64,000 bases of DNA, from positions 23,244 to 87,243 of the forward strand of contig CAYYRJ010000005.1 in NCBI GenBank assembly GCA_964474085.1, given 5' to 3'. Origin of the DNA: an uncultured Planctomycetales bacterium. GTDB taxonomy: Bacteria; Omnitrophota; Gorgyraeia; Zapsychrales; JANLHA01. Shown in pieces: positions 4,142-59,674 of this stretch. Below the pieces are notes generated by a model. It searched no databases. It saw only the letters and a program-made list of their open reading frames with translations, and was not told the origin of the DNA. The stretch's first letter is position 1; every line of letters starts with the position of its first letter. The translations under genes were made by a program, and so were the position numbers.

Positions 4142-5146
4142 ATGCCAGAACTACGTAAAGATCCGGTTATCGGGCGTTGGGTCATTATTGCTACTGAAAG
4201 AGCAAGACGGCCTGGTGTTTTTATCGATTCCCAAAAGAATACTTTTGATTCGGGGCATTGTTCGTTCTGTGACAATCAGGAAAAAGAAATTTATGCAGTG
4301 TATCCTCAGCCAGGCGGCCCGTGGAAAGTCCGTGTTGTCGAAAGCGGTACGCCTCTTTTGTCGACCCATGGAAAGTTTAGCCGAAAAGGTCACGGTCTTT
4401 ATGATGTGGTCAATGATTACGGCAGCCATGAGGTGGTCATTGAAACGCCGGAACATATTGCCAACATGGCGGATTTAAGCCAGGAACAAATTCGCATGGT
4501 TTTTGAAACCTACGCTGTCCGTTACAATGAACTTGAAAAAAACGCCAATTTTCAATATGTCATTGCTTACAAAAATTACGGCTGGGCGGCAGGTTCTCGT
4601 CGCATTGGGCATTCGCGTTCGCAGATCATTTCTACGTCGGTTATTCCTTTTAGCGCCAAAGAAAAACTTGCCGGAGCCAAAAAATATTATAATTACCGCG
4701 AACGCTGTCTGTATTGCGACATGATTGCCCAGGAGCTTGAAGCTAAGGTCCGCATCATTGCCGAGAGCGAACATTTTGTGGCGATGACACCGTTTGCGCC
4801 GCGTTTTATTTTTGAAATTTGGATTCTTCCCAAGAAGCATCATTGCGATTTTGGCAAAGGTGTTCTCGGACATGAGCATGATTTAGCGGGGTTGATCAAA
4901 GTCCTTTTGATGAAATTAAAAAAAGGATTGGATGACCCGGCGTATAATTATGTCATTCATTCTGCGCCATTTCGTCATGGGGAAAAATCTACGAAGTGGA
5001 AAACATTGGCTGAGGATTATCATTGGCATATCGAACTTTTGCCGAGATTAACGCGTGTGGCCGGTTTTGAGCGGGGTTCCGGATTTTATATTTCTTCGAT
5101 TCCACCGGAAAGTGTTGCGGACTTTTTGCGGGAGGTCAAAGTTTAA
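4142..5146 (+). CDS. GalT-like hexose-1-phosphate nucleotidyltransferase family protein (HIT superfamily), variant copy with HSRSQ in place of the H-x-H-x-Q motif
   Basis: 334 aa; CxxC zinc pair, C-terminal YHWHIELLP, GalT-family collinearity; residues 157-161 are H-S-R-S-Q (Arg where the nucleophilic His is expected). Confidence 0.7.
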   Translation: MPELRKDPVIGRWVIIATERARRPGVFIDSQKNTFDSGHCSFCDNQEKEIYAVYPQPGGPWKVRVVESGTPLLSTHGKFSRKGHGLYDVVNDYGSHEVVIETPEHIANMADLSQEQIRMVFETYAVRYNELEKNANFQYVIAYKNYGWAAGSRRIGHSRSQIISTSVIPFSAKEKLAGAKKYYNYRERCLYCDMIAQELEAKVRIIAESEHFVAMTPFAPRFIFEIWILPKKHHCDFGKGVLGHEHDLAGLIKVLLMKLKKGLDDPAYNYVIHSAPFRHGEKSTKWKTLAEDYHWHIELLPRLTRVAGFERGSGFYISSIPPESVADFLREVKV

Positions 5147-6150
5147 TGTCAGAAGTAAGGAGAGATCCGGTTATTGGCCGTTGGGTGATTGTCGAACAGC
5201 GCGAAAAGTCTTTGGGCCCTGCGGATTATGAAAAAGAGCCGCATGTTATTAAGCAGGCGGCGGTTTGTCAGTTTTGTGCAGGCCGTGAAGCGCAAACTCC
5301 ACCGGAAGTCGACGCAATTCGGCCGGGCGTGTATGCGCCCAATGCGATAGGCTGGCAGGCGCGTGTTGTCCCCAATAAATTTCCGGCACTGCGTATTGAA
5401 GGCGATTTGGGCCGTCGGGGCGTAGGGCTTTATGATATGAGCAATGGCGTAGGAGCTCATGAGGTTTTGATCGAAACGCCAGAGCACGCAAAAAATTTTG
5501 CGGATTATTCCGTTGATGAAGTCGTCAATGTCCTTAAGCTTTATCAAAGCCGCTCAGCGAGCTTGGCTAGAGATAAACGTTTTAAGTACATTATGATCTT
5601 TAAAAATTATGGCCAATCGGCCGGCGCCTCTGTTGAGCATGCGCACAGCCAGATTATTGCTTTGCCGATGGTGCCCAAATATGTCGCCGAAGAATTGGAA
5701 GGCGCAAAACAGTATTACGATTTTCGCGGGCGTTGTGTGTTTTGCGATATGATACAGCAAGAGTATCAGGACCAGCGACGGATTATTACCAGCAATGACG
5801 GGTTTATCAGTTTTTGCCCGTTTGTCCCGCGCTTTCCGTTTGAAAGCTGGATTTTCCCCAAAGACCATGGTTGCGACTTTGTCACTTTGCAAGACAAAGA
5901 GCGACGGGAATTGGCGGAAATTCTCAAAAGTGTTCTGTTGCGGATAAAGGTTTGTTTATCGGATCCTTCTTATAATTTTTATTTGCACGTCACTCCTGTG
6001 GATTACGAAAATCCGCAGAGCTATCATTGGCATATTGAAATTGTTCCGCAGTTGACCCGCGTTGCCGGGTTTGAGTGGGGGACCGGTTTTTATGTTGTCC
6101 GCACCGCCCCATCGGTTGCCGCCGAGCATTTGCGCGGCGCGATTTCTTAA
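5146..6150 (+). CDS. GalT-like hexose-1-phosphate nucleotidyltransferase family protein (canonical HAHSQ motif)
   Basis: 334 aa paralog of the upstream gene; start overlaps its stop (TAATG); CxxC, H165-A-H167-S-Q169, YHWHIEIVP. Confidence 0.75.
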   Translation: MSEVRRDPVIGRWVIVEQREKSLGPADYEKEPHVIKQAAVCQFCAGREAQTPPEVDAIRPGVYAPNAIGWQARVVPNKFPALRIEGDLGRRGVGLYDMSNGVGAHEVLIETPEHAKNFADYSVDEVVNVLKLYQSRSASLARDKRFKYIMIFKNYGQSAGASVEHAHSQIIALPMVPKYVAEELEGAKQYYDFRGRCVFCDMIQQEYQDQRRIITSNDGFISFCPFVPRFPFESWIFPKDHGCDFVTLQDKERRELAEILKSVLLRIKVCLSDPSYNFYLHVTPVDYENPQSYHWHIEIVPQLTRVAGFEWGTGFYVVRTAPSVAAEHLRGAIS

Positions 6151-11906: not shown

Positions 11907-12088
11907 ATGAATTTTACGGCTCAAGAAACGGTCCCCAGTGGATGGAATATAAAAATAAGAAATAGCTAGAGGGTTAAGGTGGTTAATTTTTAAGGCGAAT
12001 CGGAACGCAGCCCCGATTTTATCCCGCCGATAGGCGGGACTCCAGCGGGGATCGTTTCTTGAGCCGTAAAATTAACCACCTTAACCCG
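11907..12088 (+). repeat. 181-nt structured element: permuted inverted repeat (21-bp and 18-bp perfect arms) with internal GC hairpins
   Basis: 11910-11930 is the exact reverse complement of 12054-12074; 11971-11988 is the exact reverse complement of 12071-12088; inner hairpin CCCGCC-GATAG-GCGGG at 12023-12039. Confidence 0.6.
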
Positions 12089-12107
12089 ATAATAAATTGG
12101 AGGAAAA

Positions 12108-15458: not shown

Positions 15459-15474
15459 TAGCTTGTGTTAACGA

Positions 15475-15549
15475 ATCCAAAAATCCTTTTGTGGCTCAAT
15501 TATTTGGTCCCTACTTCAGGGACTATTCGCCGAAAAAGTATTTTCGGAT
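15475..15549 (+). repeat. structured intergenic repeat, family copy 1 (core GGCTCAATTATTTGG-hairpin-ATTCGCC inside a 16-bp imperfect outer stem)
   Basis: Shares conserved flanks with the copies at 28348 and 37420; inner hairpin TCCC-ACTTCA-GGGA differs but stays paired. Confidence 0.6.
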
Positions 15550-15678
15550 TGGCCAAGAGTGGGTCATTCAATTTTTGTATTCTACAATAAATATAAAAAA
15601 TTATTATTTTTAACTTAAACTTATTTGCCTATAATGGCGATAGAATTTTACTGGTGCACTGACAAAAGGGAGGAAACC

Positions 15679-19778: not shown

Positions 19779-20392
19779 AAAAAACAACATCGCAAATTCA
19801 GAAAAAAAAGCCCCAGCCTTCTTTAGGGGCGGCGGTTAATTTTTTTGCCGAAGCGGGACTTTTGAAACATGTCAAACGAAGCGGCTGGTGGGTCGCCGGG
19901 ATCAAGGAACCGGAGTCGGTCGCGGAACATTGTTTTCGCACGGCGGTCATCGGATTTTATTTAGCCCATTTAGAAAATTTGGACCCTTATAAGGTCGTCG
20001 TCATGGCGCTTTTTAATGACATCCACGAGGCGCGGATCAACGATTTGCATAAAATGGGTCACTACTACATTGACTTTAAGGACGCCGAGAAAAAAGTTTT
20101 TAAGGACCAGGTAGCAGAGCTTGATGAAAAAGTCGGTATGGTCCTTGAAAAGATGCGCAAAGATTACGACGAGCAGGCAACGCCAGAAAGCATTGTCGCG
20201 CGCGATGCGGATATTTTAGAATGCCTGTTGCAAGCCAAGGAATATTACGATCGCGGGCACCAGGGCGCCAAACTTTTTTTTAAGAGGGCGCCGGAGTATT
20301 TGAAAACGAAAAGTGCGCAAAAAATGTGGGCGACGATCGAAACATGGGACAGCCACCTGTGGTGGCAGAATGTTGTCAAGTTTGAACGCTAG
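19775..20392 (+). CDS. HD-domain phosphohydrolase (YfbR-like 5'-deoxynucleotidase family)
   Basis: AEHCFRTAVIG...FNDIHEARINDL region resembling the HD_3 family. Confidence 0.5.
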   Translation: MKKTTSQIQKKKPQPSLGAAVNFFAEAGLLKHVKRSGWWVAGIKEPESVAEHCFRTAVIGFYLAHLENLDPYKVVVMALFNDIHEARINDLHKMGHYYIDFKDAEKKVFKDQVAELDEKVGMVLEKMRKDYDEQATPESIVARDADILECLLQAKEYYDRGHQGAKLFFKRAPEYLKTKSAQKMWATIETWDSHLWWQNVVKFER

Positions 20393-20411
20393 AATTCCCG
20401 GAGGAAATTCA

Positions 20412-20702
20412 ATGGAACGTATCGGAATGATTGCCAGCAAAATTTCATCGGGGAATCTATTTCTTTACAACTGTTATGTCATTGTTATTTCGTTTTTCTT
20501 ATCGTTTTTAGTATTTCTTTTAGCCGGTTGTGCGATTTTTCTTGGCCTTTGGGTGTTGCGTTTGGGCATAGGGCCGTTTATCCCGTCGATGAGCCCCGGT
20601 GTGTGGAACCTGGTTTTTTGTTATTCGCTAAGCGCGTTAACGGTTTTAGTTGGAATGATCAATCTTGTGGCTGTTTTAAAAAATATTAAACTTGGAAAAT
20701 GA
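20412..20702 (+). CDS. small membrane protein (96 aa, 2-3 TM)
   Basis: Internal ATG with GGAGG RBS; stop overlaps the start of the hybrid kinase (ATGA). Confidence 0.35.
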   Translation: MERIGMIASKISSGNLFLYNCYVIVISFFLSFLVFLLAGCAIFLGLWVLRLGIGPFIPSMSPGVWNLVFCYSLSALTVLVGMINLVAVLKNIKLGK

Positions 20703-28328: not shown

Positions 28329-28347
28329 ATTTTTTGCGTTAATTTTG

Positions 28348-28430
28348 CCGGTTCTCAAAGTCCTTTTTCGGCTCAATTGTTTGGCGCCTCTATGGCGCTA
28401 TTCGCCTTCAAAAGGACTTTGAAAACCGGC
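28348..28430 (+). repeat. structured intergenic repeat, family copy 2 (21-bp outer stem with one mismatch; core TCGGCTCAATTGTTTGG-CGCC-TCTAT-GGCG-CTATTCGCC)
   Basis: gccggttctcaaagtcctttt ... aaaaggactttgaaaaccggc encloses the conserved core. Confidence 0.65.
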
Positions 28431-33008: not shown

Positions 33009-33016
33009 TATCTTTA

Positions 33017-33140
33017 CTTTTATCTGCTTTACGTCGGAACGTTCGCCCGCCCCTGCGTATGGCGGGCTTACTCGAAGAAAAACTCGCTCTGATTCCATGC
33101 GAGCTTTGTTTTTCAACGTCCGACTACAAGCAGATAAAAG
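33017..33140 (+). repeat. structured element: about 25-bp imperfect outer stem enclosing two hairpins, one followed by a T-tract
   Basis: cttttatctgctttacgtcggaacgtt pairs with aacgtccgactacaagcagataaaag; inner GCCCGCC-(9 nt)-GGCGGGC; CTCGC-(11 nt)-GCGAG followed by TTTGTTTTT. Confidence 0.55.
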
Positions 33141-33170
33141 CAAAGCCATAAAAGGACAGTATTTTAAATT

Positions 33171-37416: not shown

Positions 37417-37419
37417 GCG

Positions 37420-37502
37420 ACAGAGTTGATATTGAGTTTTTCGGCTCAATTGTTTGGCGCCTCTATGGCGCAATTCGCCTAAAAACTCAATATCAACTCT
37501 GT
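37420..37502 (+). repeat. structured intergenic repeat, family copy 3 (perfect 22-bp outer stem; core CGGCTCAATTGTTTGG-CGCC-TCTAT-GGCG-CAATTCGCC)
   Basis: acagagttgatattgagttttt is the exact reverse complement of aaaaactcaatatcaactctgt; core nearly identical to copy 2. Confidence 0.7.
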
Positions 37503-37524
37503 CAATCATATAGGAGATATTGTT

Positions 37525-38682
37525 ATGGGGTTTTTGATTTTGGGTATCGTCGCTGGCATTATTGTTTTAGCTGCGTTTGTGTTTGTTCTGCAAAAGGTTT
37601 TGTACTCGCAGGCGCAGGCGCAGGTTGCGTTTTTTGAAAAAAGAATCGCCGAACAGATGAAAGCCAATCAGGAGCAGTTTTTGCTTTTGGCCGGGCAACA
37701 GTTTAAGGCTGAACAGAGCAAGGCCGCCGGCGAGTTGGAAATCCGCAAACAAGCCGTTGAGACGTGGGTTGTCCAATTAAAGGAAGAATTGTCGCAATAC
37801 CAAAAACAGGTTCGTGATTTTGAACAAGACCGGTCTGTCAAATACGGCAAACTTGAGAATGAGTTAAAAAATGCCTCTTTAGCGACGGCGCGGCTGCAGG
37901 AGTCGACGAATCATTTGAATAATATTTTGGGCAATGTCAAGCTGCGCGGGCAATGGGGCGAGCGCATGGCTGAGGATATTATCCGCTACGCGGGCTTGAT
38001 CGAAGGGGTCAATTACGAGAAACAAAAGAAAATCGAAAGTAGCGCGACCAAGCCGGATTTTGCATTTTTTTTACCCGACAATCATCGGGTCAACATGGAC
38101 GCGAAGTTTCCTCTGGATAATTATATCAAGATGGTCAACTTGCCCGATGGCGTTGAACGTGCGGCGGCGCTGAAAGAATTTTTAAAAAACGTCAAGGAGC
38201 GGATCAAGGAAATCCAGAATCGCGAATATATCAATCCGTCCGAAAATACGCTGGATTTTGTGCTTTTGTTTATTCCTAATGAACAGGTCTTTGGGTTTAT
38301 TCAGGAGAATTTGCCAGAACTCATGACGCAAGCATTGCAGGACAAGGTTGTTCTTTGTTCGCCCTTTACGCTTTATGCGATGCTCTCTGTCATTCGCCAA
38401 GCGCACGAAAATTTTCGCTACGAAAACGATATCCGCAAAATCATCGGGCTTATTGAACAGTTTATTGGCCTGTATGACCGTTTTAAAGGGCGATTTGACG
38501 ACGAGCTTGGCAAGCAAGTCGAAAAACTGAATCTTCTGTATGCGGACATTAAAACAAAAAATTTTGTGCAGTTGGATACAAAAATCCGGCAAATTGAAGC
38601 CTACAAGCAAGGCAATCCCGGCGTCACGCAGGCTGATATTCCCGTAATCGACTTAAAATCAGAGTTTGCCCGTGAATTATAA
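37525..38682 (+). CDS. rmuC: DNA recombination protein RmuC
   Basis: N-terminal TM, long coiled coil, then RmuC C-terminal domain (NVKLRGQWGE..., DFVLLFIPNEQVF). Confidence 0.85.
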   Translation: MGFLILGIVAGIIVLAAFVFVLQKVLYSQAQAQVAFFEKRIAEQMKANQEQFLLLAGQQFKAEQSKAAGELEIRKQAVETWVVQLKEELSQYQKQVRDFEQDRSVKYGKLENELKNASLATARLQESTNHLNNILGNVKLRGQWGERMAEDIIRYAGLIEGVNYEKQKKIESSATKPDFAFFLPDNHRVNMDAKFPLDNYIKMVNLPDGVERAAALKEFLKNVKERIKEIQNREYINPSENTLDFVLLFIPNEQVFGFIQENLPELMTQALQDKVVLCSPFTLYAMLSVIRQAHENFRYENDIRKIIGLIEQFIGLYDRFKGRFDDELGKQVEKLNLLYADIKTKNFVQLDTKIRQIEAYKQGNPGVTQADIPVIDLKSEFAREL

Positions 38683-59452: not shown

Positions 59453-59526
59453 CGGGGAGTAGCGCAGCTGGCTAGCGCACTTGCTTTGGGAGCAAGGGGT
59501 CCCGGGTTCGAATCCCGGCTTCCCGA
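59453..59526 (+). tRNA. tRNA-Pro (anticodon UGG)
   Basis: Cloverleaf folded by hand: C1-G72 acceptor stem (typical of bacterial tRNA-Pro), D stem GCGC/GCGC, anticodon stem CTTGC/GCAAG with loop TTTGGGA, T arm CCGGG-TTCGAAT-CCCGG; no encoded CCA. Confidence 0.8.
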
Positions 59527-59637
59527 CTTTAATTTATATTTTTTGAAAGGGATTCGAAGCCGACCCGAGCGCCATTGGTACAAGCGAGGGCGGCCGGCTT
59601 CGGAGGAGCCCCGATGAATATCGGGGCGGGGGAGAAG

Positions 59638-59658
59638 GAATCCCGGCTTCCCGACTTT
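59638..59658 (+). repeat. 21-bp direct repeat of the tRNA-Pro 3' end (copy of 59510-59530)
   Basis: gaatcccggcttcccgacttt occurs exactly at both positions, 128 bp apart. Confidence 0.8.
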
Positions 59659-59674
59659 TATTTTTTTCTTTCCC

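Follow-up and report, generated by a model that had tools for sequence, protein, structure and literature searches.

To our knowledge, small dispersed hairpin repeats have been described chiefly in proteobacteria and Neisseria, and we know of almost nothing of the kind from candidate phyla such as Omnitrophota. In REPs, a conserved stem is combined with a 5' GT(A/G)G, while in REPINs the spacer is the variable part. In attC sites the sequence is free and the structure conserved, one strand folds productively, and a "variable terminal structure" ranges from a few nucleotides to a branched domain; their R and L boxes (RYYYAAC/GTTRRRY) are found at the base of the hairpin with no stem outside, and the sites stand in one orientation in cassette arrays beside intI. 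Hairpin-associated minute inversions are known as well, with examples from chloroplasts. REP, BIME and REPIN elements with RAYT (TnpA_REP) are short extragenic hairpin repeats of tens to hundreds of copies that are lineage-specific and occur in both orientations (PMC3116915); they are recognised strand-specifically as folded single strands, persist for long at orthologous sites and show no target duplication. Correia elements (CREE), other bacterial MITEs and ERIC/IRU elements are ~100-bp units with ~25-bp inverted repeats around a core (PMC2649163, PMC2229807, PMC10969869). They are intergenic, co-transcribed with their neighbours, polymorphic in presence and absence, and divided into subfamilies with different cores. 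Hairpins that act in mRNA processing or stability have been reported for REP, ERIC and Correia elements, and Correia elements bind RNase III and IHF (PMC2649163). Template switching between inverted repeats, which homogenises arms and inverts spacers (PMC8604942, PMC7202029), is a process and not a family. The repeats described below resemble REP elements in that they are short, extragenic, hairpin-forming, multi-copy, lineage-specific, present in both orientations and persistent at orthologous sites, and Correia-type elements in unit size, inverted repeats around a core, intergenic position, co-transcription, presence/absence polymorphism and core subfamilies.

The hairpin under study, copy 1, occupies positions 15475-15549 (+ strand) of the window, by which we mean the whole stretch of 64,000 nucleotides that was analysed. 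The sequence given for it in the first-pass annotation matches the window letter by letter. The arms atccaaaaatcctttt (15475-15490) and aaaagtattttcggat (15534-15549) form 14/16 pairs, the two mismatches being A.C and C.T. They enclose the 39-nt variant allele of the core (15493-15531, + strand), GGCTCAATTATTTGG-TCCC-TACTTCA-GGGA-CTATTCGCC, which consists of the clamp halves GGCTCAAT (15493-15500) and ATTCGCC (15525-15531) and the apical hairpin G-TCCC/TACTTCA/GGGA-C (15507-15523), all on the + strand. The two further copies of the earlier reading are real and are also on the + strand. Copy 2 (28347-28430) has arms at 28347-28368 and 28410-28430 with a single C.A mismatch and a canonical core at 28370-28406; it begins 19 nt past the stop codon of an aminotransferase gene, ends 64 nt before ychF and has its ortholog in L046 (L handles denote the collected loci). 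Copy 3 (37419-37503) has perfect 23-bp arms (37419-37441 and 37481-37503) around a canonical core (37443-37479) and begins 3 nt past the dinB stop codon. Its orthologs in L053 and L021 have the same orientation, while in L007 the core is inverted and a one-base insertion in both arms is compensating. The rmuC gene (37525-38682) begins 22 nt past the end of copy 3; its E. coli homologue was reportedly identified when mutants were screened for elevated inversion between short inverted repeats, and this neighbourhood is probably a coincidence. The three copies match the covariance model with 63.8 bits (model R1, 15467-15557), 93.2 bits and 98.5 bits, and their fold z-scores against shuffles are -4.5, -9.6 and -10.9, respectively. 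The 15-mer GGCTCAATTRTTTGG has three exact matches and none elsewhere in the 64-kb window. A unique long hairpin of another kind (33012-33145) is flanked by genes for a pseudouridine synthase and an ABC-F protein, with 27-nt arms (85% complementary) and an 80-nt GC-rich core that has a hairpin of its own (CGCCCGCCCC..GGCGGGC); BLAST gave no other copy of it in the collected loci.

Copy 1 belongs to a family that populates the intergenic DNA of an Omnitrophota clade. A covariance model built from 46 copies gave 60 forward matches in six related Omnitrophota genomes or populations, and two further ones in L142 and L143. Such a model and scan had been suggested in the first-pass annotation, and with 60 copies the three resemblances in the window are not isolated. 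An exact-pattern scan of one genome per species returned 53 stretches, ~48 of them with complementary flanking arms, from five MAGs that carry the label Omnitrophota or, probably in error, Planctomycetales; close homologues of the WbpB-like oxidoreductase and the RNase PH of the window are named Candidatus Omnitrophica/Omnitrophota. A relaxed pattern applied to metagenomes gave 4 true copies among 80 loci, all 4 from one wetland data set, and chance matches for the rest. Scans of viral contigs yielded two chance matches only, and a literature search on Omnitrophota repeats yielded nothing relevant. Several MAG contigs terminate inside the repeat, which breaks short-read assemblies of these MAGs.

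The element is a unit of ~90 nt made up of an outer stem, an invariant clamp and a variable apical hairpin. The outer stem is 20-25 bp long across the family (16-23 bp in the three + strand window copies) and differs in sequence at almost every locus. A linker of 1-3 nt joins it to the GGC...GCC helix of the clamp, GGC-TC-AAT / ATT-C-GCC, which is asymmetric and often extended to TTTT-A-C...TT-AAAA. An internal loop and a bulge follow, with TCAATTRTTTG on one side and WATTC on the other, in which AAT/ATT are able to pair, and the apical part has a 5-bp stem and a loop of 5-7 nt. The flanks of the inner hairpin had been described as conserved and single-stranded; they are conserved, but the GGC and GCC within them pair together and are invariant in 53/53 distinct copies. 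Consensus-like copies (L081:1101-1114, L057, L099, L055, L044 and L037) carry a tail of 12-14 nt, TAAACTTGCRCAT(C), 3' of the 3' arm on the strand written in that annotation, which corresponds to a 5' leader GATGYGCAAGTTTA on the folding strand identified below. Due to this conserved tail, the element is asymmetric beyond the hairpin; the tail TAAACTTGCRCAT is absent from the window copies. The arms share only a loose consensus, TTAGCCGATTTGGAAATCCTTTTT, which is seen near-intact in four copies of one wetland data set. Several candidate features were considered and rejected: an ORF of 22 codons that consensus-like copies have on their complement strand, with its ATG in the 3' tail, since variable linker lengths leave its frame unconserved; an IHF site (TCAA-N4-TTG) in the canonical core, which is absent from long-core relatives; and a K-turn or tandem G.A clamp on the complement strand, due to a misfit in geometry. 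Hammerhead, twister or other ribozyme cores were not seen by inspection.

The family as first read, with three copies in the window, is too small, since a distant "long core" member is encoded at 11967-12091 (- strand; 33.9 bits with model R1, regex match and fold), between queF and the RNase PH gene as assigned by Pfam on the neighbours. It has perfect 20-bp arms (11971-11990 and 12068-12087) and the clamp GGCTCAA ... ATTCGCC (+ strand coordinates 11994-12065) around a 72-nt branched apical domain. A truncated half copy of the long-core type (TTTTACGGCTCAAGAAACGGTCCCCAGTGGA; 11910-11942, + strand, inverted repeat I1) faces this full copy and was identified by comparison with the full + strand copy L146:9786-9888. 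Further relatives picked up by the model, L135:8768-8877 and two L146 elements, read GGCTCAAT-GAACG...CGTTC-AATTCGCC, and a 29-nt "mini" core is found at L146:9901-9981. The queF/RNase PH site thus holds clamp elements both in the window and in the distant Kpj58rc genome (L146), which has two there. Between these genomes, arms and apical domains differ and only the clamp is kept, often as TTTTA-C-GGCTCAAT ... ATTCGCC-TT-AAAA. Apical helices covary between core types, e.g. CCCCGAT/ATCGGGG versus CTCCTGCC/GGCAGGAG, and the clamp is the sole part common to the canonical family and the long-core and mini-core relatives (window, L135 and L146).

L029 and L146 contain a sister type, GGCTCAAAC...AAACTCGCC, of which L043 preserves a remnant. 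This second hairpin-repeat type (L029:1430-1560, L146:20063-20165, remnant ~L043:4770-4810) has arms of 22-24 bp and the core GGCTCAAAC(A)RTGTCTCGCGC...GGCNCTCGCCAAACTCGCC, the ends of which resemble the clamp of the family studied here; its arm mismatches in L029 are likewise of the A.C type on one strand. The L146 relative of the L029 core was found by regex, BLAST having earlier given no copies. The idea that L029 has a different core within the arms of L002 was rejected by alignment: this core belongs to a second, adjacent element family with its remnant in L043. The long-core hairpin of L135 lies exactly at the junction of an HD-domain gene and an M48 peptidase gene (L135:8764-9648 compared), and the window (20388-20412) is without the M48 peptidase gene that follows the HD-domain gene in L135, L137 and L138. 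Adjacent 334-aa GalT/HIT-like paralogs (GalP_UDP_transf, DUF4921) are encoded at 4142-5146 and 5146-6150 of the window, followed by a GAPDH gene; they are exactly 1004 nt apart, with DNA stretches 77-82% identical, and the pair is also present in the distant L146.

In a model-based alignment of 54 copies, all pairs of the outer stem (21/21) change on both sides while 91.5% of the cells are still paired, and the covariation score is 0.60 compared with 0.14 for shuffled and 0.06-0.13 for slid partners. The pairing of the outer stem in spite of changed sequence, as claimed in the first-pass annotation from three copies, is therefore borne out. Its view that the copies are not recent duplications also holds, since many are orthologous between genomes in which the flanks (mostly coding) are 74-88% identical by flank BLAST. 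Counted over orthologous pairs with flanks <90% identical, the core is identical at 434/444 positions (97.7%) versus 326/501 (65%) for the arms. The core is far more conserved than the adjoining genes, and the arms evolve at the rate of neutral DNA or faster, yet remain paired. The inner stem of 5 bp reads G-CGCC/GGCG-C in copies 2 and 3 versus G-TCCC/GGGA-C in copy 1, so that two apical pairs are changed on both sides. This compensation had been taken as covariation of the inner hairpin; it is real, but these are the only two covarying pairs of the apical stem, found in three sequences (TCCC/GGGA in 3/53 distinct copies), and they represent one subfamily allele copied between loci and not independent evidence.

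Since the arms can be maintained by template switching and the core is inverted at 7/11 orthologous sites, stem covariation alone is no proof of a selected fold. The stem covariation is largely as expected of a DNA palindrome, and in palindromic repeats it cannot stand alone as evidence for a functional RNA. The earlier reading of covariation as a sign of selection on the fold stands only in part: a mismatch bias described below shows that one strand is constrained, but template switching also keeps arms complementary. The family separates these two causes of "covariation", namely DNA-level maintenance of a palindrome and selection on the fold.

The element is, or was, mobile, and copies have been gained and lost. 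At the copy-1 site it is missing from L135/L136, L137 and L138/L139 (WbpB-like protein 81-86% identical) and present in the closer relatives L142 and L143 (92-93%). Four paralogous copies from one metagenome population have arms that are 83-98% identical versus a within-MAG median of 48%; recent paralogous copies were not seen in the clade of the window itself. Truncated or decayed copies are found at L012:5975 and L014:5375. No direct repeat that could represent a target-site duplication was found beside the youngest copies (L055, L057, L081 and L099), and TTA...TAA, frequent at the base of the stem, is indistinguishable from an extension of the palindrome. No empty arm hairpins were found in the ~0.5 Mb of Omnitrophota DNA scanned, hence the arms travel with the core. 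The insertion of cores into pre-existing host hairpins was rejected on this ground and because the arms share a loose consensus.

Cores are also exchanged and inverted in place. The copy-1 ortholog in L142 has the canonical core in homologous arms where the window has the 39-nt variant, and the identical variant occurs at an unrelated locus in another MAG (L045:4033); the core of copy 1 is thus an allele that has moved between loci. Core orientation is opposite between genomes at 7/11 orthologous sites, even where flanks are 93-97% identical (L010/L035, L016/L037 and L002/L029). At the copy-1 site, the core of L143 is flipped relative to L142 and the window, and an inner-arm mismatch (ATCC opposite GTAT) is shifted to the other side together with the core. 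This indicates that the core and the inner arms were physically inverted together, the breakpoints lying in the variable outer arm, and the inversion at this site is not due to a site-specific invertase. Template switching offers a DNA-level explanation of stem covariation and flips alike.

The mismatches in the stems are strongly biased. On the strand written in the first-pass annotation there are 76 A.C versus 25 G.T, and after de-duplication to 33 arm groups 54 A.C versus 12 G.T (p=1.7e-7), distributed across all columns of the stem. L010 and L035, which are orthologs, carry two independent mutations that each make a G.T on the complement strand. The complement strand is the more stable fold in 51/54 copies with DNA parameters and in 36/53 with RNA parameters, and likewise in the long-core relatives. 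Orientation relative to local GC skew is random (28:26), although mean |skew| is 0.12. As the bias is independent of transcription and GC skew, a strand effect of mutation does not account for it; rather, folding is required of the strand GGCGAAT...AATTGAGCC, on which mismatches are tolerated mainly if they remain G.T/G.U. By the 54:12 bias, it is thus the complement of the strand first written down that folds. A mismatch bias of this kind reveals which strand folds without reference to transcription or replication.

We propose that copy 1 is a member of a family of small palindromic repeats, non-coding and lineage-specific, that falls broadly into one class with REP/BIME, REPIN, ERIC and Correia-type MITE elements, and in which a folded single strand is recognised by a putative factor; we give this reading an even chance. 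The best-supported statement within it is that this is a new repeat family whose recognition determinant is the clamp plus the tip and not the stem. The GGCGAAT...AATTGAGCC strand would act as a single-stranded hairpin, most simply as single-stranded DNA exposed during replication or mobilisation and less likely as RNA. The clamp would be the docking site of a putative dedicated trans-acting protein, e.g. an HUH/Y1-type nuclease or a recombinase, whose specificity could hold the core invariant and drive copying by transposition and/or core-only gene conversion. The stem would then need pairing only, and template switching on the quasipalindrome during replication might keep the arms complementary and flip the core as a by-product. 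A tblastn search of ~0.5 Mb of Omnitrophota DNA with Y1/RAYT and IS200 TnpA query sequences, which is a weak test, gave no match, and flanks aligned at the stem base revealed no conserved terminal motif comparable to the GTAG of REPs.

As the main alternative, the repeats could be cis-acting RNA elements of operon mRNAs, with the duplex as RNase III site or 3'-end stabiliser and the tip bound by an RNA-binding protein, that tune the relative expression of neighbouring genes, as reported for REP, ERIC and Correia elements. The genomic context is compatible with this, as copies are intergenic, typically 5-50 nt past a stop codon, and nearly all of them are found inside strings of co-directional genes or at their ends, shortly past stop codons, and must therefore be co-transcribed. 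The stems of 20-25 bp are very stable, the conservation of the clamp locus by locus at old orthologous sites suggests selection at the level of the host, and Correia elements with their binding of RNase III and IHF offer a precedent (PMC2649163). However, the orientation relative to co-directional genes is random, so that the strand present in the mRNA is the plus-core one in 16 contexts (+,+) and the minus-core one in 18 (-,-). The wobble bias tracks the core and not the transcribed strand, with 26 A.C versus 12 G.U (G.T in DNA) in (+,+) and 30 versus 6 in (-,-) contexts. Moreover, the core flips between close relatives with no visible cost, ~12% of the copies lie between divergent genes, and there is no match to an Rfam family. 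We therefore regard a role as RNA element as doubtful. Rfam 15 at gathering score detected only a tRNA-Pro in the window; with permissive settings, copy 1, copy 2 and the long-core member returned miRNA-hairpin noise or nothing. A scan for intrinsic terminators flagged nothing in the element, the stems being AT-rich and followed by non-U sequence. The tRNA-Pro(TGG) gene (59453-59527) has its last 34 nt (GAATCCCGGCTTCCCGACTTT...) repeated 128 nt downstream at 59638-59671 with 88% identity; ARAGORN and Rfam find one tRNA only. The repeat may be an att-like scar left by an element that integrated or was excised.

The remaining explanations are progressively less likely. A neutral relic, i.e. a decaying MITE-like palindrome with arms kept paired by template switching and cores overwritten by gene conversion among ~100 copies, agrees with the core-only replacement documented at the copy-1 site, with flips that coincide with changed arms (L016/L037 and L002/L029), and with the decayed and truncated copies, and its template-switch mechanism is established (PMC8604942). 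Concerted evolution alone would nevertheless allow the consensus of the family to drift between species, and the 37-nt core is identical where flanks are only 74-79% identical. The strand-specific mismatch bias (p=1.7e-7) requires a selective filter linked to the core, and the clamp survives the replacement of arms and apical domain. Purely neutral decay is thus unlikely in our opinion. Still less probable, and in our view very improbable, is an invertible genetic switch in which the arms serve as inverted repeats to flip a tiny promoter or protein-binding cassette in the manner of phase variation. The inversion of the core at 7/11 sites, even between flanks 93-97% identical, and the size of the 37-nt core, just large enough for a promoter, would fit this. 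The arms are locus-specific, though, so that no single site-specific invertase could recognise them, and the crossover lies in the variable outer arm. There is no sigma-70-like promoter within the element, and a sigma-54-like GG-N10-GC in the apical stem of the canonical core was rejected on sequence inspection since it is lost in the variant core (7-nt loop) and in long cores. The neighbours are housekeeping genes. Inversion as in invertons is therefore observed, but with locus-specific arms and no promoter-like site.

A riboswitch or 5'-leader regulatory RNA controlling the downstream gene, to which the position of the three canonical-type window copies on the + strand upstream of + strand genes might point, is effectively refuted by unrelated downstream genes (GFO/WbpB-like oxidoreductase, ychF and rmuC), the random family-wide orientation (16 vs 18), the location of copy 1 outside the conserved promoter block that precedes the WbpB-like gene and upstream of this block, and the lack of an Rfam match. 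The neighbours are unrelated throughout: hypothetical/GFO-type (WbpB-like) oxidoreductase, aminotransferase/ychF and dinB/rmuC genes in the window, and pyrR-pyrB-pyrC, MTAP-proC-yggS and a nucleoside phosphorylase gene at other loci, where proC, pyrB, pyrC and a nucleoside phosphorylase gene are bracketed by copies. The divergent promoter region in which the first-pass annotation placed copy 1 is incidental to the element. An AT-rich promoter-like block upstream of the WbpB-like operon (AAATATAAAAAATTATTATTTTTAACTTAA..TTGCCTATAATGGCG, 15575-15650), outside the element, is conserved in L134, L135, L137, L142 and L143, including relatives without the element, and with TTGCCTATAATGGCG it is nearly identical in relatives down to ~74% nucleotide identity. 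It is probably a real promoter/operator shared by the divergent genes, and copy 1 is positioned upstream of it.

Returning to the repeat family with a recognised folded strand, it differs from each described system in a defined way. Like REP and REPIN elements, it is extragenic, multi-copy, vertically persistent and present in both orientations, and by analogy with REPs its folded single strand may be recognised strand-specifically. Its conservation is inverted, since tip and clamp are invariant and the stem is free; neither GT(A/G)G nor a short conserved palindrome characterises the copies, no GTAG was seen in their flanks, and no RAYT gene was found in ~0.5 Mb of Omnitrophota DNA. Perfect REP-like palindromes (T)GTAGGGRACGGTCGCGACCGTYCCCTAC(A) that contain GTAG were seen elsewhere, at L028:2466-2499, L032:7174-7203 and L044:1178-1207 of one MAG (CAZNNZ), and a different palindrome, TAGTAGGGGCGTATTGCAATACGCCCCTACTA, at L019:4459-4496 of a second (CAZWOH); together these might constitute a distinct repeat family that has a putative RAYT-type partner of its own. 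In MITEs, the terminal inverted repeats are conserved for transposase binding and end in a target duplication (TA for Correia elements), whereas in the family described here both sides of every stem pair (21/21) vary, the median arm identity within a genome is 48%, and no duplication and no parent IS were seen. With attC sites it shares a conserved structure of free sequence, a single productive folding strand, a conserved box with asymmetrically placed unpaired bases, and a terminal structure that varies; in contrast to them it has no R''/R' boxes (RYYYAAC...GTTRRRY), and its copies are dispersed among housekeeping genes in both orientations. Template switching on quasipalindromes and hairpin-associated minute inversion explain arm homogenisation and recurrent spacer inversion (PMC8604942, PMC7202029) but not the invariant core or the strand-biased mismatches.

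In conclusion, the pattern of the family, with tip and clamp invariant across species, a stem that is free yet paired, repeated core inversion and cores swapped between loci, points to a sequence-specific factor. A purely selfish model does not readily account for a clamp that is intact at very old orthologous sites where both arms and the apical domain are changed (window 11967-12091 vs L146:9901-9981), and this retention fits host-level selection at each locus better. We tentatively speculate, as a possibility below an even chance, that the elements are the DNA (or RNA) half of a new hairpin-recognition system in Omnitrophota. It would be a clamp-defined superfamily, including the sister type GGCTCAAAC...AAACTCGCC, with a free stem and exchangeable apical "cassettes" (short, mini and long cores), in which the clamp is under purifying selection at each site and is read from one strand whatever the direction of transcription or replication. 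If this is true, the family and its factor would be a new pair of partners on a par with REP-RAYT or attC-IntI and might have a function for the host.
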